The notes: generated by a model from the sequence alone, not told the origin. A stretch of 64,000 nt of DNA from Nitrincola iocasae (GCF_008727795.1 NZ_CP044222.1:3632686-3696685), one strand, 5' to 3'. Counted from the stretch's first letter, positions 22,326-40,084 are shown. Numbers and translations are program-made.

Positions 22326-23252
22326 TTAAGGCGCGGGGTGTTCAGCTATCCAGTGACGGGCAATATCCTCTCGCCGGGTTATCCACACGTCGTCATGCTG
22401 CTGCACATAATCAAGAAAGCGCTGTAACGCCCGAAAGCGGCCGGGACGACCGATTAAACGACAGTGCAAACCCACTGACATCATTTTCGGTGCATCAGCG
22501 CCTTCGGCGTAGAGCACATCAAAACTGTCACGCAGGTAGGTGAAGAAATTATCGCCATCTGCAAAACCTGTGGGTGACGAAAAGCGCATATCGTTACAGT
22601 CCAGGGTATAAGGAATCACCAAGTGGGATTTACGCTCTCCTTTGGCCGTATCCACCTGAGTCCAGAAAGGTAAGTCATCACCATAATAGTCGGAGTCGTA
22701 GAGAAAACCACCCTGCTCCACCACCAGTCGCCGGGTATTGGGTGAGTCACGACCTGTGTACCAGCCCAGTGGTGGGTTCCCGGTCAACGTATTGAAGATC
22801 TGCATTGCTTCCTGAAGATGGGCACGTTCCTGGGCTTCTGGCATTTCCTGATAATGTATCCAACGCAAGCCATGACAGCAGATATCATGCCCCAGGCGCT
22901 GGAACTCATGACACAGATCAGGATGGCGTGCCAACGCCATAGCAACACCAAAAATAGTCATGGGGAGGTCACGGCGTTCAAATTCACGCAATATCCGCCA
23001 GACACCCGCCCGTGAGCCATATTCATAGATGGATTCCATACTCAGGTGGCGATCAGGGTAAGGTGATGCACCCGCAATCTCAGACAGGAAGGTTTCCGCA
23101 TGGGCATCGCCATGCAGCACTGACATTTCAGCGCCTTCCTCGTAATTAAGGACAAAATTCAAAGCCAACCTGGCCTTGCCCGGCCAGCGTGGATCAGGGG
23201 GATTGGCCCCGTAGCCAATCAGATCGCGGGGATACTCGGCGTTATTTTGCAT
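22326..23252 (-). CDS. puuE: PuuE-type allantoinase (polysaccharide deacetylase family).
   Basis: MQNNAEYPRDLIGYGANPPDPRWPGKARLALNFVLNYEEG is the PuuE signature. Start chosen at the internal ATG, giving 308 aa. Confidence 0.8.
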   Translation of the reverse strand: MQNNAEYPRDLIGYGANPPDPRWPGKARLALNFVLNYEEGAEMSVLHGDAHAETFLSEIAGASPYPDRHLSMESIYEYGSRAGVWRILREFERRDLPMTIFGVAMALARHPDLCHEFQRLGHDICCHGLRWIHYQEMPEAQERAHLQEAMQIFNTLTGNPPLGWYTGRDSPNTRRLVVEQGGFLYDSDYYGDDLPFWTQVDTAKGERKSHLVIPYTLDCNDMRFSSPTGFADGDNFFTYLRDSFDVLYAEGADAPKMMSVGLHCRLIGRPGRFRALQRFLDYVQQHDDVWITRREDIARHWIAEHPAP

Positions 23253-23271
23253 CGTTCTATCCTGTTCTGTT

Positions 23272-23787
23272 TCAGGGCTGGTCAACCCAGTGGAGCTGAT
23301 CAGCCGCAAAGGTATATTCGTCACAATTGGCGAGCTGACCACTGCGATCCACCACCAACAATTCATCGCCATCCACACAGACAATCAATGGATGGTGCCA
23401 GACGCCGGCCGCATAGTTGACACCCTGAGAGCCATCACTGATAAACAGGCGCATCTGCTGTGGATCAGGCTGTTTGCCCGGTGGTGCGACGACGATCAGA
23501 AAGGGATGCCCCTTGAGTGGAATAAACGCCTGCGAGCCATGTGGATGACGTTCCAGCATCTGAATCGTCAGAGGGAACTGATCCGCCAGGGGTTTGCGAA
23601 ACACACTGATAATGGCCCGACCATCTGCCGGACCCGTTTCGACCTGTGCCATTTGGTGATAGCGCTCGGTGCTACCGCCATTGATGAGGAAATGGCTGTG
23701 AACCTGGCGGTCAATTACCTGCCCAAAGGCGGCAAAATTCTCAGCCGTCAGCGCTGTAGGTTGCAGTTGCATTGACATCTTCAGCAC
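23272..23787 (-). CDS. allA: Ureidoglycolate lyase.
   Basis: AllA-like N-terminus ([14 protein letters not shown]) and a length of about 165 aa. Confidence 0.75.
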
Positions 23788-24785
23788 CTCGCAATGTGTC
23801 CTAACAGGCGTAATCGGCTGACACCGCCATCAGGGAAAATATTCAACCGCACATGGGTAATGGGCCCGAGATCCTGCAATTCTGCTGCAAAAACATGTTC
23901 CTGATGCATTTCCAGTTTTTGCGAGGGTAGCAGTTCCTTCCAATACAGACTTTGCGTCTCAATCTGGCTTTCAGTGCCGCCTTTAACATAGGCACCCTGA
24001 ATCGAGCAGCTATCCGGGTAGTTACCCTTGAAGTGCAATGTATCCACGATAATTTTTTCCACCACACCCGGATGCCCCAGTGACAGAATCACCCAGTCAT
24101 AGCCCGGCGTACGACGACGTGCGGTTTCCCAGCCATCGCCCATATTGATACCACGACCCGGATTGATCAGGTTACTGATACTGCCATAATGCTCATCAGA
24201 ACACGCCAGTGCCCGACCACCATTTAATACCGAGACTAAATCTAACTGTTCAGCTTCACTCACAGAAGACCAGTCACGGTAGGGAATACCATAAACACGC
24301 AAGCGTGCGATGCCACCATCGGGGTAGATATTAAAGCGCAGGTGCGTCCATGCCTGATCGTTAAGTGTGGTGGCATGCAAATGATGGCTATTACCCTGAA
24401 GATCAACAGACGCTAAAATCTGGGTCCAGCGTGTTTGTTCGTCCGGATCACCGCGCTCACAGAAACAAGCCTCTAAGGAGGCCGACGGTGGATAATTCCC
24501 GGTAAAGAAGGAGGTATCAATATCAACACCCTGAACATACCCCGGTACACCCAGGCGAATGACTGCATAGTCATAGCCTTCAAAACGCTTGCGCCGACTT
24601 TCCCAGCCATCCATCCATTTGCCATTGTCATCAAACACCCCATCTTTCCACACAGGTGGCTCGGGTTGCAGCATGCGGTTAACATCGGCAAACCAGTCAT
24701 CGGTGACAAAAACAGCCCGGGTGCCCAAACGGGCATCGGCGAGGTTAATACTGCGTTTATAAGGATTATCAGCGGCTTGCATCAT
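23781..24785 (-). CDS. alc: Allantoicase.
   Basis: Two tandem allantoicase repeats (WFADV..GWESRR and [10 protein letters not shown]). Confidence 0.85.
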
Positions 24786-25669: not shown

Positions 25670-26398
25670 TTATAATACCGCGTTGATAAAGCTTTGCAGT
25701 TCCGGTGTAGAAGGCTGATCAAAAACAGCCTTGGCTGGCCCACTTTCCCAAACCTTACCCTGGTGCATAAACACCACCCGATCACCAACATCGCGGGCAA
25801 AATTCATTTCATGGGTAACCAGTACCAGGGTCATACCCTCTGCCGCCAGTTGTTCCAATACTCGCAGCACTTCGCCGACCAGTTCAGGATCCAGTGCCGA
25901 GGTAATCTCATCACAGAGCAGCACCTTGGGTGACATCGCCAGAGCGCGCGCTATCGCAACACGTTGCTGCTGCCCGCCGGATAAACAATCTGGATATTCG
26001 TCGATTTTTTCAGCCAGCCCCACTTTCGCCAGTTTATCCTCAGCCAGCGCACGCGCCTCCTGGGTGGATAGTTTCAACACCAGCTTGGGTGCCAGCATGA
26101 TGTTTTCGCCTACAGTCAGATGCGGGAACAGATTAAAGCTCTGGAACACCATGCCGACACTGCGTGCCAGCAGGCGCACCTGCTTTTCATCACTGCTGAC
26201 CTCCTTATTATCTACCGTGATGACGCCTTGTTGATAGGCTTCCAGTCCATTCATGCAACGTAACAGGGTACTTTTTCCCGAACCACTGCGGCCAATAATG
26301 GAGACCACCTCTCCGGCATCAATTTTCAGATCGATACCCTTGAGTACATGCAGGTCACCGTAATACTTATGTACCTGATCAATGTTAACCAGCGCCAT
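25670..26398 (-). CDS. Polar amino-acid-type ABC transporter ATP-binding protein.
   Basis: Walker A GRSGSGKST, ABC signature LSGGQQQR and Walker B LLCDE. Start chosen at MALVNID. Confidence 0.85.
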   Translation of the reverse strand: MALVNIDQVHKYYGDLHVLKGIDLKIDAGEVVSIIGRSGSGKSTLLRCMNGLEAYQQGVITVDNKEVSSDEKQVRLLARSVGMVFQSFNLFPHLTVGENIMLAPKLVLKLSTQEARALAEDKLAKVGLAEKIDEYPDCLSGGQQQRVAIARALAMSPKVLLCDEITSALDPELVGEVLRVLEQLAAEGMTLVLVTHEMNFARDVGDRVVFMHQGKVWESGPAKAVFDQPSTPELQSFINAVL

Positions 26399-27035
26399 TG
26401 AATTTTTTCTCCAAACGTTGACTCGCCAGGGACAGCGGATAACAGAGCGCAAAATAGATCAACGCAACCATGGCAAAAATTTTAAAGGGTTCAAAGGTGG
26501 CATTGTTCAGCATGGTACCGGCCTTGGTCAGCTCGACAAAACCGATAATAGAGGCCAAAGCAGTGCCTTTGACTACCTGTACGGAAAACCCGACCGTGGG
26601 CGCCAAGGCCACACGTACCGCTTGCGGCAGTATCACCCGGCTCAAGGTTTGCTTGAAATTCAACCCCAGGCAACGGGACGCTTCCCATTGACCACGAGGC
26701 AAGGTATCAATGCAGCCACGCCAGATCTCAGTCAAAAAGGCACTGGTGAAGAAGGTCAGCGCAAAGGCGGCCGCCGCCCAGGCTGAGATATCAAACCCCA
26801 GCAGTGAAAGACCAAAGAACACCAGAAACAGCTGCATCAGCAAGGGCGTTCCCTGAAACAGCTCGACATAGCACCGCACCAGCCACTGTAACGGTCGACG
26901 GCCACTCAAGCGCAAGGCTGTCAGCAACAGACCAACCAATGCTCCTCCGATAAAGGCCGTCAGTGACAACGCAATCGTCCACCGAGCTGCCAATAACAGA
27001 TTACGGAGCAAATCCCAGTTAGAAAATTCGATCAT
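26385..27035 (-). CDS. ABC transporter permease (HisM/GlnP type).
   Basis: Polytopic membrane protein with an EAA-like loop. Operon context. Confidence 0.8.
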   Translation of the reverse strand: MIEFSNWDLLRNLLLAARWTIALSLTAFIGGALVGLLLTALRLSGRRPLQWLVRCYVELFQGTPLLMQLFLVFFGLSLLGFDISAWAAAAFALTFFTSAFLTEIWRGCIDTLPRGQWEASRCLGLNFKQTLSRVILPQAVRVALAPTVGFSVQVVKGTALASIIGFVELTKAGTMLNNATFEPFKIFAMVALIYFALCYPLSLASQRLEKKFNGAG

Positions 27036-27697
27036 ACCGCAGCCCTCCGGTGACGAAACAAGCGCCGCCCCACCCACTCAAATAGTTGACGCATCAGGAT
27101 GGCAAACAGCAAATACATCCCGGCAACGACCAGGTAAGCCTCAAAGCTTCTGAAACTGCGTGACTGAATAAGATTCGCGGCGTAGGTCAGATCCATCACA
27201 GATATCTGCGACACCACCGCCGATCCCAACATCACGATGATGCACTGACTGGTCAGCGCAGGATAAATTTTCTCAAACGCCGGAATCAGTACCACGCGAA
27301 AAAACACCTGGCGAGGACTCAACCCCAGCACGCGAGCCGCTTCGACCTGAGCCTTGGGTGTTGCCGCTAAACCGGCACGGATAATCTCGGTACTATAGGC
27401 TCCGAGGTTGATCAACATGGCCAATAACCCCGCCTCCCAAGCGGTCAGCTTGATACCGAGTGCAGGTAAACCAAAAAAGATAAAAAACAACTGCACAATA
27501 AAGGGCGTGTTACGGATCAATTCCACATAGCTGCCAATCGCTCCGCGTAACAGTTTGCCACCGTAGTGACGGCCTGCCGCACAGGCCGTACCTATAGCCA
27601 CGCCTCCCAGCGTGGCATACAAGGTCAGCACCACGGTGACCCAAAGCCCCTGCAGAAGCAGGTTGCTATAGGGCAACAGGTCACTGAAATTCAGCAT
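27032..27697 (-). CDS. ABC transporter permease (HisQ/GlnP type).
   Basis: Polytopic membrane protein in tandem with the second permease. The ends overlap by 4 nt. Confidence 0.8.
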   Translation of the reverse strand: MLNFSDLLPYSNLLLQGLWVTVVLTLYATLGGVAIGTACAAGRHYGGKLLRGAIGSYVELIRNTPFIVQLFFIFFGLPALGIKLTAWEAGLLAMLINLGAYSTEIIRAGLAATPKAQVEAARVLGLSPRQVFFRVVLIPAFEKIYPALTSQCIIVMLGSAVVSQISVMDLTYAANLIQSRSFRSFEAYLVVAGMYLLFAILMRQLFEWVGRRLFRHRRAAV

Positions 27698-27707
27698 CAA
27701 TCCGTCC

Positions 27708-28511
27708 TCAAGAACCGAAGCCATCAGGCAAAGGCGCGCGCAACCAGGTTTCTGAAATACTATTCAAGGTGCCATCTTGCAATGCCTGGGCAATGATTTC
27801 ATTCACCCGTGCCTGCAGCTCAGCTTCACCTTTGTTCAGGCCGATATAACAAGGTGAGTCACGCAGCATGAACTTGGTCACTGGCGCTTGCTCAGGGCGA
27901 CGCTCGGCAATTTCTGCCGCTACCAGGTTGCCAGTGGCAATCAACTGAACCTGTCCGGAGAGATAGGCTGACAAAGTGGTATTGTTGTCTTCGAAACGCT
28001 GCAGTGTGGCATCAGCTGGCAGGACTTTTTCCAGCTCCATATCTTCTACCGCGCCGCGGGTGACCCCTACGACATGACCACTAAGATCTTCTGGCGCGGC
28101 TACAGCGATGTCCGGGTTACCAAAAACGCCCAGAAAGAAAGGCGCATAAGCATCGCTGAAATCTATGGCCCGTTCACGCTCTTCGTTTTTACCCAGGCTG
28201 GAGATCACCAGGTCGGCACGTCCAGTTTGCAGGTAAGGTATGCGGTTGGCACTGGTCACGGTAATCAATTCAACACTCACACCCAGCTGTTCACCGATGT
28301 AATTGGCCATATCGATATCATAGCCACGCGGCTGCATATCGGTACCAACAGAGCCGAAAGGTGGAAAATCCTGGGGTACCGCCACCCGAATCACACCACG
28401 TTCTTCAATCTCACTCAGCAGGTTTGCCTGGGCACTGATCGACAGGGTTACAGCCACCGCCGCCACACTGGCGAGCAGTCCGCGCTTAAATGTTTTAAAG
28501 GTTTTCTTCAT
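27708..28511 (-). CDS. ABC transporter periplasmic substrate-binding protein (family 3 solute-binding protein).
   Basis: Signal peptide followed by a type-3 solute-binding-protein fold. First gene of the transporter operon. Confidence 0.8.
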   Translation of the reverse strand: MKKTFKTFKRGLLASVAAVAVTLSISAQANLLSEIEERGVIRVAVPQDFPPFGSVGTDMQPRGYDIDMANYIGEQLGVSVELITVTSANRIPYLQTGRADLVISSLGKNEERERAIDFSDAYAPFFLGVFGNPDIAVAAPEDLSGHVVGVTRGAVEDMELEKVLPADATLQRFEDNNTTLSAYLSGQVQLIATGNLVAAEIAERRPEQAPVTKFMLRDSPCYIGLNKGEAELQARVNEIIAQALQDGTLNSISETWLRAPLPDGFGS

Positions 28512-28870
28512 CTAGCTATCCTCAGTCAGGTTGGTCGTTATTGCAACTTTTGATTCACACAAAATAGCTTCTGCAACAAAAGTGCCAAAACCAAACCGCA
28601 AAGAAAAAAGAGTGAAAATATGCTTAAGATCAACTAAATGAAAAAAACTTATGCCGGTATGACGAATATCTAGGCTAGTATTCTGAATTCAATCGGTGCA
28701 TCTACGCACTAAAATGTGGCAAAACACATCTACGAGGCCGGGGAACCCAAGGCTAACTCGCCCCACTATGGATTGGTACATGACTCTAAGAAATTTTTCA
28801 TCAAATAGAAATGAGAATCGAATAGCATCATGCCGACCACTTTTGCTATGATGCATTAACACGAAAAACC

Positions 28871-28905
28871 ATTACATGTAAGCTTGACATTTTACATGTA
28901 ATGAC
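28871..28905. promoter_or_regulatory. Pair of TTACATGTAA palindromes, 19 bp centre-to-centre, flanking a TTGACA -35 box. Candidate operator/promoter for the downstream PspA-flotillin array.
   Basis: Exact 10-bp palindromes at about 28874-28883 and 28893-28902 with TTGACA at about 28885-28890. They lie roughly 20-45 bp upstream of the ATG at 28920, in a very AT-rich divergent intergenic region. Confidence 0.35.
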
Positions 28906-28919
28906 TAAATATTATCACC

Positions 28920-29573
28920 ATGAAAAAACCAAAAACATCAGCCGACTACCAACGTGAGTATCGCAAACGTCTACGCGATCAAGGCCTAGTTAAAAAGGAG
29001 GTATGGATTCATCCGAACCACGCTAGGATTTTGTCTCAATACGAGCAGGTTTTTCGCAACCCTTTGATTACTAGCGGTAAAACATGCAATACCCAACTTA
29101 AGGAAATAGAGGTAAGTATGAACAAAAAGAACACATGGACTACACATTCTCTGTTTGAAGCCCTGCTTGAAACAGAAATGGTGTCGTCGAATCAAGCTAG
29201 TATAAAGCTGGAAGAGAGTACAAAAGCAACGATCCACATGGTATTGCATTCCATGGGAGATCTTCCTGTTTATGTTACCGTCGCCGGTGAACAGATTCTG
29301 GCTGAAAGTCTTTTATGGCCCCAGGATATGGTTAATGATGTCGTGGCCTTCAATGATGAAGTTCTCGTTACCCATAAAATTTTCCCCCTATCGACAATCA
29401 GTCTGGATACCTTACCGACAGGTGAGCGTTATTACACCATGTTCGGCGCGCTGAGTGCTTTTTCATCACTCTTCGATGTTGTTTTTGAAATTGAGTTATT
29501 AGCAGACAATGTCATCAAGGCAGCGGATGCCTATTCAAAATTCTTGCCTAGTCAAATGATGGTGGAGGTGTAG
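28920..29573 (+). CDS. Hypothetical protein with a basic N-terminal region. First gene of the PspA-associated array, possibly a YjfI/DUF2170-like PspA partner.
   Basis: Open frame immediately followed (1-nt gap) by the PspA-family gene. There is an internal ATG at 29118 with a strong GAGG Shine-Dalgarno sequence, so the true start is uncertain. Confidence 0.5.
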   Translation: MKKPKTSADYQREYRKRLRDQGLVKKEVWIHPNHARILSQYEQVFRNPLITSGKTCNTQLKEIEVSMNKKNTWTTHSLFEALLETEMVSSNQASIKLEESTKATIHMVLHSMGDLPVYVTVAGEQILAESLLWPQDMVNDVVAFNDEVLVTHKIFPLSTISLDTLPTGERYYTMFGALSAFSSLFDVVFEIELLADNVIKAADAYSKFLPSQMMVEV

Positions 29574-29574
29574 C

Positions 29575-30282
29575 ATGGCCGTATGGAGTAAGTTAATGAC
29601 AGCTTTGCGTGGCAATGCTAATGCGCTCGGTGAGTCCATAGTCGACAGCCAGGCAATGGTGATACTGGATGAAGAGATTCGCAATGCCGGGACAGAGCTT
29701 AATCAAGCCAAACTCGCTTTAGCAGAAATCATGGCCAAGCACCGTGTTGCAACTGATAAGCTAACGGTGCTTAAAGGCCAGGTTACAGAGTATGAAGACT
29801 ATGCACTTGCCGCACTGGAAAAAGGCAAAGAAGACTTAGCACAAGAAGTGGCCCTAAAAATTGCCAATATTGAAACTGAATTAGCGCAACAGCAAGAAAT
29901 CGTCGATCACTACGGTAAAAGTGTTGATCAACTGCGCACTGCTGTCCAATCTGCAGAAGGTAACTTAAAGCGCTTACGTCAACAAGCCGATACGGTGCTT
30001 GCTACTGAGTCGGTTCAACGCGCCCAAGCCGCCGTTGCCAGCCGCTATGCCGGCGGTCAAGCCAAGTTACAAACCGCTATGGATTCGCTGGAGCGAATTA
30101 AAATGAAACAAGCCGAAAATGCGGCCAGAATGGAATCTGCTCAGGAATTAGAAGCCGAAAGTCGAGGCGATGTGTTAACCGAAAAATTACGAGCAGCCGG
30201 TATTACGCCACAGGAAACAAGCGCTACCAATGTTCTAAATCGGTTAAAGGAAAAACAACAAACCAAGCAGAATAATGCTTAA
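29575..30282 (+). CDS. pspA: PspA/IM30-family protein (phage-shock protein A / Vipp1 / ESCRT-III superfamily).
   Basis: MAVWSKLMTALRGNANALGESIVDSQAMVILDEEIRNA is the PspA-family N-terminus. The 235-aa protein is entirely coiled coil. Confidence 0.85.
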   Translation: MAVWSKLMTALRGNANALGESIVDSQAMVILDEEIRNAGTELNQAKLALAEIMAKHRVATDKLTVLKGQVTEYEDYALAALEKGKEDLAQEVALKIANIETELAQQQEIVDHYGKSVDQLRTAVQSAEGNLKRLRQQADTVLATESVQRAQAAVASRYAGGQAKLQTAMDSLERIKMKQAENAARMESAQELEAESRGDVLTEKLRAAGITPQETSATNVLNRLKEKQQTKQNNA

Positions 30283-30321
30283 AATATAGATTAAGCGATC
30301 ATTCAATAGGAGTAATTAACA

Positions 30322-30963
30322 ATGGACGTTTTTATTTTAATTATTGCCAGCTATCCCGTGGCAGTTTTTACTTCTCTCCTATTGGTAGTTGTAATCTACT
30401 GGTTAATAGCAATTCTCGGATTAATTGATATTGACACTCTGGATCTCCCAGAGATCGATGCTGATGCAGAACTTGATAGCCTGGAAGGGTTAACAGGTGT
30501 TGCGGGCTTTCTTATAAAGCTTGGCTTTCAGGGAATTCCGGTGATGGTTATATTGAGTCTACTGACACTGGTAGCCTGGTGGACTTCCTATTTTTGTGTC
30601 TGGCTACTTCCTTTTGCTTTAAATGGCATTTGGAAATTGGTATTAGGCACTGCCATCTTAATCACTTCCTTTATTTTTGCGCTCTTGATCACTCGATTTT
30701 TAGTGATCCCTTTAAAGCCGCTATTTAGAAAAAACACAGCAAGAAGCAAGAGAAGTTTTTTAGGCCAAGCTGTTGTCATACGAAGCTCCCGCGTTGACGA
30801 GCATTTCGGACAAGCTGAGTTCAACGATGCTGGAGCCGGTTTGATCTTAAATATTCGTGCAAAAACACCCAATCAGCTCAAAAAAAATGATCGTGTCATA
30901 CTACTTGAATACCTTGAAAAAGATCATGTCTATCTGGTAATCCCCGAAAGGGACTTTTATTAA
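30322..30963 (+). CDS. yqiJ: YqiJ/NfeD-like inner-membrane protein (DUF1449-like). Flotillin partner.
   Basis: N-terminal TM helices plus a C-terminal soluble OB-like domain. Located directly upstream of the YqiK-like flotillin, as in the E. coli yqiJK pair. Confidence 0.6.
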   Translation: MDVFILIIASYPVAVFTSLLLVVVIYWLIAILGLIDIDTLDLPEIDADAELDSLEGLTGVAGFLIKLGFQGIPVMVILSLLTLVAWWTSYFCVWLLPFALNGIWKLVLGTAILITSFIFALLITRFLVIPLKPLFRKNTARSKRSFLGQAVVIRSSRVDEHFGQAEFNDAGAGLILNIRAKTPNQLKKNDRVILLEYLEKDHVYLVIPERDFY

Positions 30964-30980
30964 AAAATTGGAGAATTAGA

Positions 30981-33020
30981 ATGGATTTGTCACTCTTGAT
31001 GCCTTTACTAACAGGCGTTGCAATTTTTGTCATATTTATCCTTGGAGTGCTTGCTTTATTCAAGGCATTTTATGTCAAAGTACCTCAGGGTTGGGCGTTA
31101 ATTATTAATGATATGTCAAAAACACCCAAAGTGTACTTTACAGGCGGGATGGTATTACCTGTAATACATAAAAAAGAAGGTATGAAAATATCTTTAATAA
31201 CACTTGAGGTTGATCGACGGGGCAAAGAAGGTTTAATTTGTGCGGACAACATGAGGGCTGACATTAATGTTCATTTCTATCTTCGAGTGAATGAAACCGC
31301 CGAAGATGTTTTGAAGGTTGCTAAAGCAATTGGTGTTGATCGAGCATCTGATCGTCTAGCCGTTAACGAGCTCTTCTCAGCTAAATTTTCAGAAGCATTA
31401 AAAACTGTAGGTAAGCAAATAGATTTTGTTAAGCTATTTGAGGATCGCCAATTTTTCCGCGACAAAATTATCGAAACCATTGGTAATGACTTAAATGGTT
31501 ATGTGCTGGAAGATGTGGCAATTGATTATCTGGAACAAACTCCACGAGAAGCACTTGATGCAAACAATATCCTTGATTCCGAGGGTATTCGTAAGATTAC
31601 GGAGTTAACTGCCAGACAAAATGTTATTACTAATGAGTTAGAACGTAATAAACAATTAGCAATAACCAAAAAAGATGTTGAAACACGTGAAGCCATGCTG
31701 GCGTTAGAACGCCAACAAGCCGATGCCGAAGCACGACAAAAGCGCGAAATCGACACAATCAAAGCACGAGAAGCCGCTGAGACACAAAAAACAGTTGAGG
31801 AAGAACGACTAAGAGCTGAAACCGCTCGAATTGAAACTGACTTACGCTTGAGTATCCAGGAAGAAAACAAACAACGTGAAATCGAAGTTGCACAACAAAA
31901 TAGAGAACGCGCTATTGCCGTTGAAGAAGAAAAAGTAAAAAGAGCCAGAGAGCTAGAACAAGTCGCTCGTGAAAAAGAGGTGGCACTACAGCAAATTGAA
32001 AAAGAAAAAGCGTTAGAAATTGAGAAGAAAAACATTGCTGCTGTGGTACGAGAACGTGTCGCGGTTGAAAAAACCGTTGCCGAGGAAGAAGAGCTTACTA
32101 AAGCTGTGCGGGCAATTTCCGAGGCTGAACGTCTGAAAGATGTGACTATCTTACATGCGACAGCTCAAGCAGAAGAAGAATTGGTTAAACAAGTAAAATC
32201 GGCTGAAGCCGCTGAAATTACAGCGAAACATCGTGGCCAGGAAGTCAATATTTTGGCACAGGCTGAACTGGAATCAGCCAGCAAAACCGCAGAAGCCAAG
32301 AAAAAGCTCGCCGAAGGGATTGAGGCAGAAGAAGCAGCAAGCGGCTTAGCCATTGCCAAAGTCAAAATAGCGAATGCCCAGGCGATTGAAAAAGAGGGTG
32401 CGGCTGAAGCGCGTGTATTAGAACTAAAAGCACTTGCCGATGCGCAGGGTATGGAACAGCGAGGATTGGCTGAAGCACGCGTTAAAACAGCGAATGCCGA
32501 AGCAACGGAAAAACAGGGTCTGGTTGAGGTCCATGTGTTAGAAGAGCGTTTGACAGCAGAGGCTCAAGGCGAAGAACAATTAGGCATGGCACGTGCTAAA
32601 GCGAATAAAGAACAAGGTCTCGCCGAAGCGGCCGTCATTCGAGAACGCTTCAAAGCCGAAGCCGATGGTCTGGTTGAGAAGTTTACAGCGATGAACTCTA
32701 TGACCGAAAATTCTCGCGAGCATGAAGAGTTCCGCATGAAACTTGAAAAGGATTTCGAGCAAGCATTGGCCTCTATTGCGGCTAATAAAGACATCGCCGC
32801 CGATCAAGCCACAGTTCTCGCCTCCGCACTGGGTAATGCCAACATTGATATTGTCGGTGGCCAGGGTGATTATTTTGATACCTTTGCTAAATCATTATCC
32901 TTGGGTAAAGCAATCGAAGGCGTGGCTGGAAAAAGTCCTAACATTCAGGCCTTACTGAACAAGTTCTTATCCGGCCAGCTTCCAACTGGTAATGAAAGCA
33001 AAGAAAGAGCGGATAGTTGA
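30981..33020 (+). CDS. yqiK: Flotillin-family SPFH/band-7 protein (YqiK-like) with long EA-rich coiled-coil repeats.
   Basis: N-terminal TM plus an SPFH domain (KVPQGWALIINDMSKTPKVYFTGGMVLPVIHK..ISLITLEVD). This is followed by about 400 aa of ERQQADAEARQKRE/EA repeats typical of the flotillin domain. Confidence 0.85.
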   Translation: MDLSLLMPLLTGVAIFVIFILGVLALFKAFYVKVPQGWALIINDMSKTPKVYFTGGMVLPVIHKKEGMKISLITLEVDRRGKEGLICADNMRADINVHFYLRVNETAEDVLKVAKAIGVDRASDRLAVNELFSAKFSEALKTVGKQIDFVKLFEDRQFFRDKIIETIGNDLNGYVLEDVAIDYLEQTPREALDANNILDSEGIRKITELTARQNVITNELERNKQLAITKKDVETREAMLALERQQADAEARQKREIDTIKAREAAETQKTVEEERLRAETARIETDLRLSIQEENKQREIEVAQQNRERAIAVEEEKVKRARELEQVAREKEVALQQIEKEKALEIEKKNIAAVVRERVAVEKTVAEEEELTKAVRAISEAERLKDVTILHATAQAEEELVKQVKSAEAAEITAKHRGQEVNILAQAELESASKTAEAKKKLAEGIEAEEAASGLAIAKVKIANAQAIEKEGAAEARVLELKALADAQGMEQRGLAEARVKTANAEATEKQGLVEVHVLEERLTAEAQGEEQLGMARAKANKEQGLAEAAVIRERFKAEADGLVEKFTAMNSMTENSREHEEFRMKLEKDFEQALASIAANKDIAADQATVLASALGNANIDIVGGQGDYFDTFAKSLSLGKAIEGVAGKSPNIQALLNKFLSGQLPTGNESKERADS

Positions 33021-33099
33021 GGCGGCGTAAATAGCATCAATTTATTAAACAGCGCTTAGCTTAGGCTGAGCGCTGCTCATCTAGCAAACCATAAGGATA

Positions 33100-36000
33100 G
33101 TGAAGATGTCAGAATCCAGCCACTCTCAGGATTCCATTCAGAGTGAACTCGACCCATCTGCCGAGTCACCAAGCGTTACTGAAAATGCAGCGTATGATGT
33201 GATTCGAAGTCGATTGCTGACGCAGGGAGAGCAACTGCAATCACAAGTCGAGGCACTCAACCAAGCGCGCTTATCTGAGTTTGGCCAGATTGATTTAGCA
33301 GTGGCTCATCGATTTAGAGTCCGAACTGAGAACAATTGCATTGCCCGTGACATTGTTCAGGTGGGAGAGTATCTGCTATTTGGTTACAACGTCTTTATTG
33401 GATTAAAGAACACTACTGCCGTCAATGATGTGTTTGCTCTATATCGGCACAATGCCGAAGCTGATTCGTTTGAAATGGCAGAGGTGGCGCTAGAGGGCAC
33501 ATTTCTATCTGAAGTCGCTTTTGTAAACGACTTTACCGAGCTGTACACCTACTACAATAATGCGCGCCTGCTTCAATTACAGGTACGCAACAACCGCTTA
33601 TTAGCCTCTTTCCAGATAGGTGAACGCAGCAGCGATATACGCGTTTTTCGTTGGCAGATAAGTGCTGATGCTAAATCAGTCACCTACATAGACAATCGAG
33701 GTGAACGCGACATTAAGCTACCACCCTCACAGGATTTTGAGTGGACAATGCTAGGCCGCGAACACATGGTGAATGGTAAATACCCTCATTTTTCAGTTCT
33801 GGATCGTATTTTTGTTGATACCCTGGGCGGAGACCTGACGGTAAAAATTGAAAACAATACTGAAGCAGGGAAAGGGATATACTCTGAGCCAGTTGATGAA
33901 ACTAATCAATCGCTTAACGATATTGAGCTAGGGTATGCTTTGCTCGGCGACCTTATACTCCTACGTGTACTACCCTATCGCGAAACGCACGTCCGTTATT
34001 TTGTATTCAACAGCTTTAACCAGGAAGTCAAACGTATTGATGATATAGGCGAAGCCTGTATCCAACTACCTGAAAACCATGGCATCATTTTTCCTGGTGG
34101 CTGCTATTTAGTCCAGGGCGGCTTGCGCTACTTTAGCAATGACCAAAAAGGACTGGTTTTCCAACGATTTGTTCGCTCACCTAATGGTGAGGATGTGCTT
34201 TATGTATTTTACCAAGCGACTGATGGGGTCGTAGCTTTATACCCATACAATATGATTAATAAAGCCTTGAGCAACCCGATTATTAGTCATGGCTATGCTT
34301 TGGCGGATGATGGTCGTTTAATTGTCTTTACCGCCGAAGAAGAGCCGTCTCGCACTCATCCCATGCAGGTATGGCACACACCTTTTTTCTCTGAAAGCTA
34401 CGCCAGTCAGCAACCTACAAGCCAATCATTTTATGGTCGTATTGGTAATCCCGAGCTGGTACGTGGCATATCAGAAATCTACTCGACTATACGTTTAATC
34501 CTGCAACAAGATGCCAGCGCCCACCATTACAATTCATTGTCACAAGCCGCTGCACGTTTATTTGATCACTTTTACTGGTTATCCAGCCCTGAGTTGGAGC
34601 AGATCGCAGGCTTACTTAAAGAGGTCTCCTCTACAGCCGAGCTGGTGCTCGATGAGTATGAAAAAGTTAAAAGCATTCAGTCACATGCTGAAGCGGCCTT
34701 AGTAGAAGCCAAGCAACGGCAGCAACAATTACTGTCATCTTTGCGCCCTGACAACTGGCAAACTCCAGAACCTTTTGTGCAAGCCTTATCGGAGCTAAGA
34801 CAGCAACGCGGGCATCTGTTAACCATACGTGAGTTACGCTACATAGACGTCGCTCAGGTAGATGAAATGGAAGCGGAGGTCATACAGGCAGAAGTAGGAA
34901 TAACAAATGCTACTGCCAACTTCCTGCAGCAAGACACGGCACTGGAACCTTACTACGCACAAATCAAATTACTGACAGAAGCAGTTGATCAGGCCAACTC
35001 TAGCATCGAGTTACAACCCACACTCAATGAGCTGAAAGCTCTCTCAGAAAGCCTGGATCTGCTTTCAGAGTTAATTGCCGGGTTAAAAATTGATGATGCC
35101 AATCAACACACCCGCATCATTGACTCAATCAGTGAGATCTACGCACAAACCAACCAGATTAGAGCGCGTGCACGCAACCGAGCACAGAGTTTTGGCAGTG
35201 ATGAAGCGCGGGCGCAATTTGCAGCCCAGTTCAAACTGTTTAGCCAGTCGATTAACAATGCCCTCGCTTTGGCACAAACCCCGGATCAATGCGATGAGCA
35301 GCTGTCTCGACTGTTTGTTCAGTTAGAAGAACTTGAAGGACAGTTCTCGGAATACAATGAATTTTTAAATGACATTCTCACCAAGCGTGAGGAAATTCAA
35401 GAGAGCTTTGAAGCACACCGCCAACGTTTAACTGACTCACGAAACCAACGCGCTCAGTCAATTTTTGATGCGGGCAGCCGTATTTTGGTGAACCTGTCTC
35501 GACGCTCTTCACGGTTTAAACGTGCCGATGAGTTAAATACCTATTTTGCATCTGACCCCATGGTGCTTAAGCTGATAACCTTAGCTCAAGAGCTTCGCCA
35601 GCTGGATGACAGTGTTAAGGCTGACGACATTGAATCCCGGCTTAAAATGGCAAAAGAGCAAGCCATTAGAGCACTACGCGACCAGGTAGATCTATTTGAA
35701 GAGAATGGAACAGTCATCAAACTGGGTCCTCGCCATCGTTTCAGTATTAATACCCAAGAGCCCGAACTCACTCTAATTCCAAGAGGTGATGCGTTAGTTT
35801 TACACCTGACAGGTACTGACTATTACGAAACTATCGATGACCAGCGTTTAGTCAAAGCTAAACCCTATTGGCAGCAAGCACTGGAATCTGAAAATGAACA
35901 GGTTTATCGCGCAGAGTTTTTGGCTGATAGCATTCTGCACGCGGCACACAGCCAAACAGAAGGTTTGAGTTGGGCCGTCTTAGTGGAAGCAAGCACTCAA

Positions 36001-38055
36001 TTTGAAACCTTGCTGGCCAAGGTTCGAGAGTACAGCGGGTCCAGATACAGAGAAGGCTATGAACGAGGCATTCATGATCATGATGCGGCCCGTATTTTAC
36101 ATAAGCTCATCCCTGCCCGTGAAGCCGCGGGGGTGTTGTACTTACCCGCCGATGCACGTGCTATTACACTGTTGTTCTGGTGGCAAACTCAACATGAAAC
36201 CGCCCAGCTACGCTGGCCCCAATCAGCACGCTCTGCGGCGCAGTTGCGTCGCCTGTTTAACACCACTCAAGCCATTCAATTGCTGGAAACTGAAATAGCA
36301 CAACACTTAGGTGCCTATGTCGATGCGCAGCGCTTACCCCTGCAGCAGCAGGGTATCAGACAGGGTGCCGAGTTTCTGGTGGCGACATTAAGTCACCCTC
36401 ATATTGACTATGTGGTCTCTAAATATGCAGAGCAATTAACGAAACAACTTGAAGCCAGTGTAGATGATCAAAGCTGGCAAGGTTTTCAAGCCGCATTAGC
36501 AGAGCTAGACGGGGATATTGGTGATCAATGGGCTCTGGTTGAAGCCTGGCTAAGTGCGCTGGTTCAGTATAGCGGTGCTGACGAATTACGCCCCTACATA
36601 CCCGAAGCTGTTTTACTGATACTGAACCAAGACCGCGAACCCATAAAGGCTTTGCAGGTGGATCTCAGCTTCAGGGTTACTGAGCTGTTAGGTGAACATC
36701 CGCGTATTGCTGAGCAACAACTCCTAATGCGCCTTGATGATTTTAATGCGCGCTTAAGTACCTTTAGACAGCAATGGTTACCGGCTTATCAACAATACCT
36801 TCTCGATCGGGCTGAGGTCGTTCGTGAAGCACGTCAAACCATACGTGTCGATGAGTTTAAAGCACAACCGCTGAGTTCTTTCGTTCGCAATCGATTAATT
36901 AACGAAGTGTATCTACCCATTATCGGCGACAACCTCGCTAAGCAAATGGGTACCGTGGGAGATAGTGGCCGCACAGATTTGATGGGGCTATTGATGATGA
37001 TTTCACCACCCGGTTATGGCAAAACCACCCTAGTGGAGTATGTTGCTAATCGGCTTGGATTAATTTTCATGAAAATTAACTGCCCGTCTTTAGGGCATGA
37101 TGTGTTGTCTCTTGATCCCCAGCAAGCCCCAAATGCAACAGCAAAGCAGGAACTGCATAAGTTGAACTTAGCCTTAGAGATGGGCAACAATGTGATGCTG
37201 TATTTGGATGATATTCAGCATACTCATCCGGAATTTTTGCAGAAATTCATCTCACTCTGTGATGGCAGTCGGCGCATTGAAGGTGTCTGGAAGGGCCGCA
37301 CCAGAACCTATAATATGCGCGGTAAGAAGTTTTGTGTGGTCATGGCGGGTAACCCTTATACGGAATCGGGTGAAGTCTTTAAAATCCCGGATATGCTGGC
37401 TAACCGAGCGGATATTTATAACCTGGGTGATATCCTGGGTGGCCAGCAAAACGCGTTTGAACTGTCGTATATTGAAAACTGTCTGACCTCGAACCCAATA
37501 TTAGCGCCCTTGGCGACCCGAGAGTTAAGTGACTTTTACAAAATTGACGCCATGTCTCGTGGAGAACAAATTGCCAATGCGGAGCTTCAGCACAGCTATT
37601 CCAATGCCGAGCTCAATGAAATGATATCTGTGTTGCAGAAGTTACGCATAGCTCAAACGATCATTTTGAAAGTGAATCAACAATATATTGCCAGTGCTGC
37701 ACAAGCTGATGAATACCGAACTGAACCTCCATTCAGACTGCAGGGTTCTTATCGCAACATGAACAAACTGGCTGAGAAAGTTACGGCGGTAATGAACGAT
37801 GATGAGTTACAGCAAGCCATTGATGACCTCTACCAGGGTGAAGCCCAGCTACTAACCACCGGCGCAGAAGAAAACTTACTTAAGCTCGCTGAATTACGTG
37901 GTACTTTAACTGCAGCACAAGCTCAGCGATGGCAGCAGATAAAGCTGGACTTTGTTCGCAACAATGCCTTTGGCGGGGCGGATTCAGATACAGGCCAACA
38001 GGTTGTAGTGCAACTAGCTGACATAGCAAAAGCATTAAAGCAACCATCTCACTAG
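33100..38055 (+). CDS. 1651-aa multidomain protein: beta-rich N-terminal domain, long coiled-coil middle, and a C-terminal MoxR/dynein-type AAA+ ATPase. Function unknown.
   Basis: A single uninterrupted ORF. The AAA+ motifs cluster near 37.0-37.45 kb: Walker A SPPGYGKTT, Walker B MLYLDDIQH, sensor-1 VVMAGNPY and an Arg finger ANRADIYNL. Confidence 0.7.
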   Translation: MKMSESSHSQDSIQSELDPSAESPSVTENAAYDVIRSRLLTQGEQLQSQVEALNQARLSEFGQIDLAVAHRFRVRTENNCIARDIVQVGEYLLFGYNVFIGLKNTTAVNDVFALYRHNAEADSFEMAEVALEGTFLSEVAFVNDFTELYTYYNNARLLQLQVRNNRLLASFQIGERSSDIRVFRWQISADAKSVTYIDNRGERDIKLPPSQDFEWTMLGREHMVNGKYPHFSVLDRIFVDTLGGDLTVKIENNTEAGKGIYSEPVDETNQSLNDIELGYALLGDLILLRVLPYRETHVRYFVFNSFNQEVKRIDDIGEACIQLPENHGIIFPGGCYLVQGGLRYFSNDQKGLVFQRFVRSPNGEDVLYVFYQATDGVVALYPYNMINKALSNPIISHGYALADDGRLIVFTAEEEPSRTHPMQVWHTPFFSESYASQQPTSQSFYGRIGNPELVRGISEIYSTIRLILQQDASAHHYNSLSQAAARLFDHFYWLSSPELEQIAGLLKEVSSTAELVLDEYEKVKSIQSHAEAALVEAKQRQQQLLSSLRPDNWQTPEPFVQALSELRQQRGHLLTIRELRYIDVAQVDEMEAEVIQAEVGITNATANFLQQDTALEPYYAQIKLLTEAVDQANSSIELQPTLNELKALSESLDLLSELIAGLKIDDANQHTRIIDSISEIYAQTNQIRARARNRAQSFGSDEARAQFAAQFKLFSQSINNALALAQTPDQCDEQLSRLFVQLEELEGQFSEYNEFLNDILTKREEIQESFEAHRQRLTDSRNQRAQSIFDAGSRILVNLSRRSSRFKRADELNTYFASDPMVLKLITLAQELRQLDDSVKADDIESRLKMAKEQAIRALRDQVDLFEENGTVIKLGPRHRFSINTQEPELTLIPRGDALVLHLTGTDYYETIDDQRLVKAKPYWQQALESENEQVYRAEFLADSILHAAHSQTEGLSWAVLVEASTQFETLLAKVREYSGSRYREGYERGIHDHDAARILHKLIPAREAAGVLYLPADARAITLLFWWQTQHETAQLRWPQSARSAAQLRRLFNTTQAIQLLETEIAQHLGAYVDAQRLPLQQQGIRQGAEFLVATLSHPHIDYVVSKYAEQLTKQLEASVDDQSWQGFQAALAELDGDIGDQWALVEAWLSALVQYSGADELRPYIPEAVLLILNQDREPIKALQVDLSFRVTELLGEHPRIAEQQLLMRLDDFNARLSTFRQQWLPAYQQYLLDRAEVVREARQTIRVDEFKAQPLSSFVRNRLINEVYLPIIGDNLAKQMGTVGDSGRTDLMGLLMMISPPGYGKTTLVEYVANRLGLIFMKINCPSLGHDVLSLDPQQAPNATAKQELHKLNLALEMGNNVMLYLDDIQHTHPEFLQKFISLCDGSRRIEGVWKGRTRTYNMRGKKFCVVMAGNPYTESGEVFKIPDMLANRADIYNLGDILGGQQNAFELSYIENCLTSNPILAPLATRELSDFYKIDAMSRGEQIANAELQHSYSNAELNEMISVLQKLRIAQTIILKVNQQYIASAAQADEYRTEPPFRLQGSYRNMNKLAEKVTAVMNDDELQQAIDDLYQGEAQLLTTGAEENLLKLAELRGTLTAAQAQRWQQIKLDFVRNNAFGGADSDTGQQVVVQLADIAKALKQPSH

Positions 38056-38120
38056 AAGTTTATGCCTATCTATCTGTGATAATCAGCATTCAAACAGCGC
38101 CGTCAGGAGAGTAGAATGGC

Positions 38121-39425
38121 TTGGACTTCTTAAAGGAATTTAGAATGACACGTTATACAAGTACACTGCGTCATTGCCGTTCACTGTTGGTGGGTGTTAG
38201 TTTGTTACTGCCCCTTACCCTGCTCTCGGCCTGCGCTTCGACGCAATCAGAGTCTTCACCGATTATGGCATCTAACACCAGCCAGGGAATCCCACAGGCG
38301 GTAGAACAAATCAACCAGCGGGAAAGCTTTGACGCCTGGCTCGAGGCATTCCGTCGTGATGCAGCGACTCAAGGGATTAGTCCCCGGGCACTCTCGGCAC
38401 TGGATAATGTGCGCTATCTGGAACGCGTGATCGAGCTCGACCGTTACCAGCCTGAATTTGTTCGTCCCATTTGGGAATACCTGGATAGTGCCGTATCCCC
38501 CACCCGGGTCAGCAACGGTCGAGAGAAGTTGGCCGAGCATGGTCAAACGGCGATGCAAATGCAGCAACGTTATGGTGTGCCTGCTGAAATTATCGTCGCT
38601 ATCTGGGGTATTGAAAGTAATTATGGCGGCAACTTCGGCAGTTTTTCAGCACTCAGTTCGTTTGCAACCCTAGCCTACGACGGTCGGCGTAGTGACTTTG
38701 CCCGCGGAGAGTTGCTGGCCGCGCTGCGTATCATCGACAGTGGTGATATTGCTGCAGACGAGATGATTGGCTCCTGGGCAGGTGCCATGGGCCACACTCA
38801 GTTTATTCCTTCCAGTTTTGAAACCTATGCCCAGGATGGTGATGGTGATGGTCGTCGAGATATCTGGGGCAGTATTGCCGATGTGATGGCGTCGACGGCT
38901 AATTATCTGGCTCGATCCGGTTGGCAGACTGGACAGCCTTGGGGAGTAGAGGTCAAGTTACCATCAGGCTTTGACTATGCCCAAACCGAGCGTCTTAGCA
39001 GCGCCGAATGGGCCACTCAAGGGGTACAGGCTTTGAACGGCCCACTGCCGACCTTCGACAGTGCCGCCGTGATCGTCCCGGCAGGTGCTCAGGGGCCAGC
39101 GTTTATGGTCGGAGCCAATTTCCGCACTATCCTGCGCTATAACAACGCCACCAGTTATGCCTTGGCCGTAGCCACCTTGAGTGATGCGATTGCCGGGCGT
39201 GCAGGCATTCAACAACCCTGGCCGCGTGATCAGCTACCCTTAACCCGTGCCGATGTGCGTGAGCTTCAGCAAAGGCTGAATGCACTGGGTTATAGCGTCG
39301 GCGAGCCCGATGGGATTTTGGGGCCGAATACACGTAAGGGTTTGGGAGTCTTCCAACAGGACCAAGGGTTAGTGGCTGACGGCTTTGCTAACCAGGCGGT
39401 GTTGGAGTTGATCAGGCAGCGTTAA
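38121..39425 (+). CDS. mltB: Lytic murein transglycosylase (MltB family) with a C-terminal peptidoglycan-binding domain. Lipoprotein.
   Basis: Lipobox LLSACAS. SLT_2-like core. C-terminal PG_binding_1 repeat (LQQRLNALGYSVGEPDGILGPNTRKGL). Confidence 0.8.
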   Translation: MDFLKEFRMTRYTSTLRHCRSLLVGVSLLLPLTLLSACASTQSESSPIMASNTSQGIPQAVEQINQRESFDAWLEAFRRDAATQGISPRALSALDNVRYLERVIELDRYQPEFVRPIWEYLDSAVSPTRVSNGREKLAEHGQTAMQMQQRYGVPAEIIVAIWGIESNYGGNFGSFSALSSFATLAYDGRRSDFARGELLAALRIIDSGDIAADEMIGSWAGAMGHTQFIPSSFETYAQDGDGDGRRDIWGSIADVMASTANYLARSGWQTGQPWGVEVKLPSGFDYAQTERLSSAEWATQGVQALNGPLPTFDSAAVIVPAGAQGPAFMVGANFRTILRYNNATSYALAVATLSDAIAGRAGIQQPWPRDQLPLTRADVRELQQRLNALGYSVGEPDGILGPNTRKGLGVFQQDQGLVADGFANQAVLELIRQR

Positions 39426-39481
39426 TGGCTGCATTCGCAGTCAGCAAGTAATGGCGGGAGTCATGTATAGATGGGTACTAA

Positions 39482-40084
39482 TTAGAAGGTTTGTTCAGCC
39501 GAATCTTGGATCAACTCACCCCGTAACTGGCTGTTGGTCATCTCCAGAAACTGCTCAAGACACTCTGTTTCTCCAGTGACTTGAGCGGTGACTCTCTGTG
39601 CATACTGAACATCCAGATTTACACCATATTGATCTGCTAAATGCCTGACAAGCGATTCATGTTCATACTGAAAATGGATAACCGCTGTGGATTGAGGACG
39701 TACCTCAATCAACTCGGCAGTATTTAACGGATCACTGATCGCCTGACTGTAAGCTCTTACCAGGCCACCAGCGCCCAGCTTAATGCCACCAAAATAGCGC
39801 ACTACGGTTGCCAGCACATTATCCAGGCCTTTGTGCTGCAACACATTAAGCATGGGGCGCGCAGCCGTGCCGGATGGCTCACCATCATCGGACTGACGCA
39901 CTTGTCCGTTTACCAGCATGGCGTAGCAAACATGCCGCGCTTCCGGATGCTGCTGCCAAAGGGCCGCCACTTTAGCGAGGCCTTCTTCCTGGCTGTATAT
40001 ACTTTCGATGCGTCCGATAAAGCGTGATTTCTTAATTTCAAAATCACTTTCTACCGGATGTTCAAGGGTTTTACTGAATGACAT
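39482..40084 (-). CDS. yigZ: IMPACT/YigZ-family protein.
   Basis: UPF0029 motifs (KKSRFIG, RYFGGIKLGAGGLVRAY). Confidence 0.85.
   Translation of the reverse strand: MSFSKTLEHPVESDFEIKKSRFIGRIESIYSQEEGLAKVAALWQQHPEARHVCYAMLVNGQVRQSDDGEPSGTAARPMLNVLQHKGLDNVLATVVRYFGGIKLGAGGLVRAYSQAISDPLNTAELIEVRPQSTAVIHFQYEHESLVRHLADQYGVNLDVQYAQRVTAQVTGETECLEQFLEMTNSQLRGELIQDSAEQTF

Follow-up and report, generated by a model that had tools for sequence, protein, structure and literature searches.

We analysed a 64,000-nucleotide (nt) stretch of the Nitrincola iocasae genome (NZ_CP044222.1:3632686-3696685, hereafter the window) that contains five co-oriented open reading frames (ORFs) encoding a DUF2170 protein, a PspA/IM30-family protein, a short NfeD-like membrane protein, a flotillin and a giant AAA+ ATPase. 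The initial annotation had described them as a low-GC array with short gaps and had proposed an undescribed system for membrane remodelling or stress. The array was verified, with all five ORFs on the plus strand, gaps of 1, 39, 17 and 79 nt (Table 1) and a GC content of 0.39-0.48, compared to 0.51-0.56 in both flanks, and the five genes indeed belong to one conserved module. However, this module had already been described: it corresponds to the bacABCDE(F) operon of Pseudomonas aeruginosa (PMC2587700, PMC10948618) and to a gene neighbourhood reported by Ravi et al. 2024 (PMC11237479). The proposed role in membrane stress or remodelling agrees with the literature, which draws the identical inference. 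We therefore regard the locus as very probably the N. iocasae orthologue of P. aeruginosa bacABCDE, a PspA-family membrane-stress module operating according to the working model given below, and name its genes bacA to bacE.

Table 1. Position of the bac genes, protein domains and regulatory elements, counted from the first nucleotide of the window (aa, amino acids).
Feature	Position (nt)	Strand	Size or remark
Putative distal operator, perfect 10-nt palindrome TTACATGTAA	28872-28881		directly upstream of the -35 box
-35 hexamer TTGACA of a predicted sigma-70 promoter	28884-28889	+	10/12 matches
Putative proximal operator, second exact TTACATGTAA	28892-28901		within the promoter spacer
Predicted AT-rich -10 region TAAATATTAT	28906-28915	+	ends a few nt before the ATG
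Gene 1, bacA orthologue	28920-29573	+	217 aa
BacA basic N-terminal domain (aa 1-46)	28920-29057	+	~45 residues
Gene 2, bacB orthologue	29575-30282	+	235 aa
Gene 3, bacC orthologue	30322-30963	+	213 aa
Gene 4, bacD orthologue	30981-33020	+	679 aa
RNA hairpin in the bacD-bacE gap	33050-33075	+	11-bp stem, -20.9 kcal/mol, z = -3.7 vs shuffles
Gene 5, bacE orthologue, giant ATPase	33100-38055	+	1651 aa
DUF3686 (BacE aa 46-492)	33235-34575	+	Pfam
DUF7902 (BacE aa 614-696)	34939-35187	+	Pfam
AAA+ core (BacE aa ~1296-1425)	36985-37374	+	Pfam and fold search

The five genes and the P. aeruginosa bac operon

The cluster owes its name to Mace et al. 2008, who called PA3729-PA3732 the 'biofilm-associated cluster' and reported that osmotic shock induces the PspA-like PA3731 and that biofilm, swarming, virulence and the production of rhamnolipids all depend on it (PMC2587700). 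Wallart et al. 2024 widened it to bacABCDEF, solved the structure of BacA and amplified every junction from bacA to bacF by reverse transcription PCR in P. aeruginosa (PMC10948618), while a 2026 study identified PA14_16160 as a short NfeD and PA14_16180 as the SPFH protein PaFlo3 (PMC13086221). The gene order of this cluster (PA3732-PA3727 / PA14_16140-16200), namely DUF2170, PspA-like, short NfeD, flotillin and giant DUF3686-AAA+, matches the window, and its paired palindromes flank a TTGA-type -35 box as they do here. In P. paraeruginosa (locus L018), bacA-E were collinear with the window proteins at 48-69% identity, and a sixth gene after the giant encodes a phospholipase D (PLD)-like protein, BacF. 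In contrast, no BacF-like sequence was found in the window (best tblastn E value 0.31), the genomic context differs from that of the P. aeruginosa cluster, and the window host belongs to a marine or alkaliphilic Oceanospirillales genus, unlike P. aeruginosa.

The neighbourhood that Ravi et al. 2024 present in mSystems as 'CesT/Tir-PspA + band-7/flotillin + YqiJ/YuaF + novel AAA+' has exactly the five components of the window (PMC11237479). For this system, a name for the operon, its phenotypes, one crystal structure and a description by comparative genomics were already available. The BacA N-terminal domain, the operator pair and the autorepressor reading presented below appear to be new, and the passages of Ravi et al. 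2024 that deal with this neighbourhood do not describe that domain, the operators or the promoter. Escherichia coli carries related gene pairs, yqiJK (NfeD-like and flotillin) resembling genes 3-4 and yjfIJ (DUF2170 and a PspA paralogue) resembling genes 1-2. However, the two pairs are unlinked, the giant ATPase is absent, YjfI is a short form without the N-terminal domain and yjfIJ lies within a polyamine-linked operon. When the 10-kb region was searched against E. coli genomes by megablast, no match was obtained.

At the protein level, gene 2 matched PspA_IM30 at 4.5e-46 (157.7 bits, gathering score 33.9) and shared 57% identity with BacB of P. paraeruginosa and 33% with YjfJ of E. coli; its sequence assigns it to the PspA/IM30 (ESCRT-III-like) family as a protein of YjfJ type and not as a PspA equivalog. 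Genes 3 and 4 yielded no Pfam match even at E<=10. Reading the gene 3 sequence directly revealed several N-terminal transmembrane helices followed by a small C-terminal soluble domain, and a weak collinear BLASTP match to E. coli YqiJ was obtained (E 0.006); gene 3 is thus a predicted short NfeD/YqiJ-like membrane protein and the bacC orthologue. Gene 4 aligned with E. coli YqiK by BLASTP at 4e-33, the alignment spanning 449 aa, the SPFH region among them, at 27% identity. We assign it as the bacD orthologue, a predicted flotillin of YqiK type (PaFlo3) combining a transmembrane segment, an SPFH domain and a long coiled coil.

Conservation of the neighbourhood and the giant ATPase

In order to define which genes accompany the giant, we scanned 80 loci carrying its relatives, with one genome per species, from Gamma-, Beta- and Zetaproteobacteria, Longimicrobium and Ca. 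Adiutrix; 68 of them have at least 4.5 kb of upstream sequence. The initial annotation had asked whether homologues of the giant consistently co-occur with pspA, yqiJ and yqiK. This was true for the yqiJ/yqiK-like genes, since tblastn showed that an NfeD-like and a flotillin gene precede the giant on the same strand in 68/68 loci, the gene directly ahead of it being 50-71% identical to gene 4 in every case. It was not true for pspA, as the DUF2170 and PspA genes were found in only 45/68. The ATPase is therefore tied to the flotillin and not to PspA. Two distant relatives, only 27-28% identical in their N-terminal region, pointed in the same direction: a flotillin gene lay directly upstream in both (4e-58 and 2.5e-133), the NfeD-like match was significant in one and sub-threshold in the other, and neither a DUF2170 nor a PspA gene was found upstream. 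The constant unit is thus NfeD-like protein, flotillin and giant ATPase, and the DUF2170-PspA pair is an add-on. At one divergent locus (L086 13001-14221, 27% identity over the N-terminal region), which lacks DUF2170-PspA upstream, a TelA-family gene (PF05816) follows the giant and may represent an alternative helical membrane-stress partner.

A BacF-like gene (PLD/HKD) was present in only 21/80 loci and BacF is therefore an optional member of the operon. These counts (68/68, 45/68 and 21/80) agree with the statements of Ravi et al. 2024 on this neighbourhood, according to which abbreviated operons that lack the CesT-PspA pair occur more widely and a PLD/HKD hydrolase is encoded in some (PMC11237479).

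The giant, BacE, was 58% identical to its P. paraeruginosa counterpart, and its best named relative, from N. nitratireducens, reached 79%. At least 4560 homologues were found, most of them named 'DNA repair ATPase'; at E<=1e-30, the family delimited by the N-terminal 700 aa comprises 264 clusters, and most of its full-length members measure 1600-1900 aa. The ATG at 33106 is a likelier start than the one in Table 1, because an AAGGA Shine-Dalgarno sequence precedes it and a 100%-identical database protein has 1649 aa; the last gap of the array would then be 85 nt. The Walker A motif SPPGYGKTT was invariant among the aligned sequences of the family. Walker B (LYLDDIQH) carries DD for the usual DE (aa 1370-1371, nt 37207-37212), and this was invariant in 59 aligned members. 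When residues 1180-1651 (472 aa) of a structural model were compared to the Protein Data Bank (PDB) using Foldseek, MCM, RuvB, NorQ, FtsH, Rix7, Lon, Vps4 and spastin matched about equally (E ~1e-5, TM-score ~0.2), so that the modelled AAA+ fold appears generic and gives no particular link to Vps4. A MoxR-like impression given by the motif could not be confirmed by the fold search either.

BacA and the region upstream of the operon

Gene 1, which is 100% identical to a YjfI-family protein of Nitrincola iocasae, matched Pfam DUF2170 at 6e-44, with the CesT/Tir-like DUF2170 domain at aa 72-209, and scored 267 bits with the NCBIfam BacA model, under its Pseudomonas-specific cut-off of 300. It matched the crystal structure of P. 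aeruginosa BacA (PDB 8q8o) at 7.5e-40 by sequence, and its AlphaFold model did so with a TM-score of 0.94-0.96; the next structural matches were YbjN/AmyR and type III secretion chaperones. Its C-terminal domain was 29% identical to E. coli YjfI. As for its partners, a BacA-BacB interaction has been predicted by AlphaFold2 with a probability of 0.981 (PMC13092808), and binding of the two proteins is given as unpublished data in PMC10948618.

Ahead of the CesT-like domain, the window BacA carries a basic N-terminal domain that shares the segment KxSAxYQRxxRxRLRxQGLVKKEVWIxP with Pseudomonas BacA and contains 18 invariant positions among 116 homologues. An AlphaFold monomer predicted a helix at residues 7-20, an extended stretch at 21-31 and a second helix at 32-46. 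Positions 5-23 of the MazE-like antitoxin model PF11455 (formerly DUF3018) were matched by 24/31 N-terminal domains, always below threshold (best E 0.0011, all <22 bits). P. aeruginosa BacA has been annotated from an internal methionine as a 16 kDa protein (~139-146 aa) and the crystallised protein had 139 residues (PMC2587700, PMC10948618); the published work on BacA therefore lacks this domain. The conserved bacA ORF of P. paraeruginosa (L018 5674-6294) has 206 aa including the basic N-terminal domain, and the NCBIfam BacA model, with 206 positions, also spans the long form.

Immediately upstream of bacA, the paired palindromic operator noticed by the initial annotation was found again as two perfect palindromes, and the TTGACA hexamer between them was the best promoter-like site within 28400-39700. 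The motif T(T/C)ACATGT(A/G)A occurred at least once within 100 nt of the start in 41/41 loci with a long-form bacA, and twice in 36 of these, whereas none of the five clear short-form loci (L081-L083, L054, L078) had it. Although the locus DNA examined amounts to 1.9 Mb, 81 of its 152 sites were concentrated in the 4.9 kb upstream of bacA homologues. In 23 of the 36 two-site loci, the proximal palindrome begins at -27/-28 from the start codon. When 43 upstream regions were aligned on the start codon, a common layout emerged, with TTGAca at -36..-31, TAAnnT at -13..-8, a 17-nt spacer occupied by the proximal palindrome (-27..-18) and the distal palindrome immediately preceding the -35 box. These regions showed no Shine-Dalgarno sequence, and the bac mRNA is probably leaderless, its transcript beginning at or next to the ATG. 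From this layout we infer a sigma-70 promoter at which a dimeric repressor, bound to two operators, blocks transcription.

BacA itself is probably the repressor, acting on its own operon through the two palindromes. In P. aeruginosa, BacB-F were 6-13-fold more abundant in a bacA::Tn mutant (PMC10948618); because of this derepression and of the link between operators and N-terminal domain, BacA as autorepressor with BacB as modulator is the simplest reading. We lean, by a modest degree, towards its complete version, in which long-form BacA is a two-part autorepressor whose distantly MazE-like N-terminal domain binds the operators of a promoter giving a leaderless sigma-70 mRNA while the CesT-like domain senses BacB.

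Several variants of this region were noted. In Comamonadaceae (L068, L075, L077, L079 and L051), the operator copies stand 13 bp apart (e.g. ATTACATGTAcaCATCACATGTAATG) compared to the usual 20-24 bp, which would therefore imply a different repressor geometry in that lineage. At L014, the N-terminal domain (MQKKSSAHYQREYRNRLREQGFVKKEVWILPEN...) is encoded upstream of the called bacA start (~5790-5920), apparently in another frame, and this could reflect a frameshift, a sequencing error or a pseudogene in that metagenome-assembled genome. N. nitratireducens and relatives (L081 5700-6060, L082/L083), whose operons are the closest relatives of the window operon, have a short BacA of 147 aa with a normal Shine-Dalgarno sequence and no palindromes, a 29-codon ORF with a strong Shine-Dalgarno sequence upstream of bacA, and the module placed between adenine glycosylase and Peptidase_M78 genes.

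Alternative readings, working model and flanking features

The initial annotation had suggested that the giant might work like Vps4 and recycle PspA polymers in an undescribed machine. PspA/IM30 proteins are ESCRT-III homologues, as restated in PMC11188069, and the window, like the ESCRT-III/Vps4 system, pairs an ESCRT-III-superfamily protein with an AAA+ ATPase, here in one operon, as do 45/68 related loci; for such PspA-AAA+ pairings, Ravi et al. 2024 suggest ATP-dependent remodelling in the passage concerned (PMC11237479). We nevertheless find this reading unlikely. A PspA plus AAA+ system is already described (PMC10948618, PMC11237479), and the idea of a recycler of PspA is weakened by the 23/68 loci and both distant relatives in which the giant occurs without PspA, while it never occurs without a flotillin gene. 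In addition, Pfam detected no MIT domain in the giant, its Walker B is of the DD type, and its generic fold did not favour Vps4 over MCM, RuvB, NorQ, FtsH or Lon. The window ATPase is thus not demonstrably a Vps4 or a member of the classical clade and its constant partner is the flotillin, a linkage that points to where its substrate should be sought. NCBI and UniRef name the giant a 'DNA repair ATPase' and the Pfam description of DUF3686 does likewise, which would make its membrane-gene neighbours incidental, but we give this hardly any credence: no nuclease, helicase or DNA-binding domain was detected, membrane-protein genes accompany it in 68/68 loci, sequence and profile searches against the PDB gave matches confined to the Walker A stretch, and literature searches on DUF3686, PA3728 and PA14_16190 found no study of the giant ATPase; we found nothing to support the database name. 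There is also only a slim chance that the module is an envelope-associated anti-phage or conflict system on a mobile island. Giant ATPases are typical of defence loci, a PLD/HKD partner is found in the 21 loci with BacF, and the low GC of the array together with its different flanking genes in N. iocasae and N. nitratireducens suggests that the module moved horizontally. However, none of the five proteins rose above noise in PADLOC, where two coiled-coil matches of the PspA-like protein (E ~0.004-0.01) were the only hits; PHROGs gave nothing relevant, no integrase or other mobility gene was present among the flanking ORFs scanned, and the same order is widespread on chromosomes of Pseudomonadales, Xanthomonadales and Comamonadaceae. 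The published phenotypes are likewise osmotic induction, biofilm and swarming, not phage resistance (PMC10948618, PMC2587700).

Transcription of the operon could instead be sigma-54 dependent, as in the E. coli psp operon, with the palindromes binding a factor other than BacA. A putative RpoN site has been placed upstream of the short-annotated pa3732 (Mace 2008, PMC2587700; Wallart 2024, PMC10948618), and a perfect TGGCAC-N5-TTGC is present in the corresponding intergenic region of the window. This site (28573-28587) lies on the minus strand and faces the divergent ABC-transporter gene, whereas the plus strand between 28512 and 28920 contains no sigma-54 consensus at <=1 mismatch; being the sole consensus site and facing the opposite way, it led us to reject a sigma-54 promoter for the window operon. 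In P. aeruginosa, the site was looked for ahead of a start codon located ~60 codons inside the conserved long ORF, the sigma-70 -35/-10 pair is kept with fixed geometry across the 43 aligned loci, and no PspF-like activator was found adjoining the operon. All this makes sigma-54 control decidedly improbable. The canonical Psp system (pspF-pspABCDE) and B. subtilis pspA-ydjGHI share a PspA-family effector with the window, and feedback through a PspA-binding regulator, established for PspA-PspF, is proposed here for the window operon as well. In contrast to canonical Psp, the window operon would combine a sigma-70 promoter with a repressor, instead of sigma-54 with an activator, and has the giant AAA+ as an added partner. 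Gene 2 scored 27 bits with the PspA equivalog model TIGR02977, against a cut-off of 243, and neither PspF nor PspB nor PspC was found in the operon or its flanks.

Our working model keeps the bac orthologue with a BacA autorepressor, and its core is the triad BacC, BacD and BacE, with BacA and BacB as a two-gene add-on in front. Dimers of long-form BacA would bind the two TTACATGTAA operators through the basic N-terminal domain; these operators bracket the -35 box and fill the spacer of the sigma-70 promoter. The CesT-like domain would bind BacB, so that the state of BacB, free or membrane-bound, could set the level of repression. BacC and BacD may build an SPFH scaffold on the inner membrane that recruits or organises BacB polymers where the membrane is damaged or curved. 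This would resemble B. subtilis, in which the SPFH protein YdjI recruits PspA to the membrane and is required for its placement there, as stated in the section of PMC11188069 on these proteins. BacE would spend ATP on building, remodelling or taking apart the assembly centred on flotillin. The scaffold, recruitment and ATP-remodelling steps are all ones that we infer. If the model is true, the operon uses a repressor-based partner-switch analogous to PspA-PspF but made of unrelated parts, and both the published BacA structure and the sigma-54 model of P. aeruginosa were built on a truncated gene annotation. The operator pair and the BacA N-terminal domain would offer a simple, testable account of operon control.

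Several points weigh against this model. None of the Bac proteins has a known biochemical activity, and deletion of paFlo3 (bacD) reduced P. aeruginosa biofilm by only ~20% (PMC13086221). The AAA+ model of the giant is of moderate confidence (predicted local distance difference test score of 70), and the DD in Walker B may indicate a slow switch rather than a motor. As for regulation, the P. aeruginosa authors propose a sigma-54 promoter (PMC2587700, PMC10948618), and the transposon itself could have caused the derepression in bacA::Tn through a polar or read-out effect. DNA binding by BacA is deduced from co-occurrence alone; for its N-terminal domain, neither a Pfam match above threshold nor a solved structure was found, and a PDB profile search with it gave chance-level matches only. 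The residue before the second arginine varies with the outer half-site base (Y with TT in 84%, F mixed, H with TC in 62%), but this correlation is confounded by phylogeny.

Regarding the flanks, the initial annotation had placed the array among purine-catabolism genes. An allantoicase and a PuuE-like gene are indeed present at 22326-24785, but a divergent amino-acid-type ABC transporter (25670-28511) lies next to the array on its upstream side. The perfect sigma-54 consensus TGGCACTTTTGTTGC stands 62 nt upstream of the solute-binding-protein gene of this transporter (start 28511).

Within the array, no intergenic gap contained a terminator-like site, and those found on the plus strand were all within ORFs. 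The hairpin of the bacD-bacE gap is not followed by a T-run. It may act in processing, stability or attenuation and could adjust the ratio between the giant and the products of the upstream genes; in our model it would lower expression of the giant. Downstream of the array, the lytic transglycosylase reported by the initial annotation was confirmed as MltB-type (38121-39425). A gene of this type neighbours the giant in 0/80 loci and the transglycosylase is no part of the system. Its start is probably the ATG at 38146, preceded by the Shine-Dalgarno sequence AAAGGAA, instead of the TTG at 38121. The 90-nt gap after the giant contains a promoter-like TTCAAA-17-TAGAAT (within 38089-38146), which fits independent transcription of the transglycosylase.

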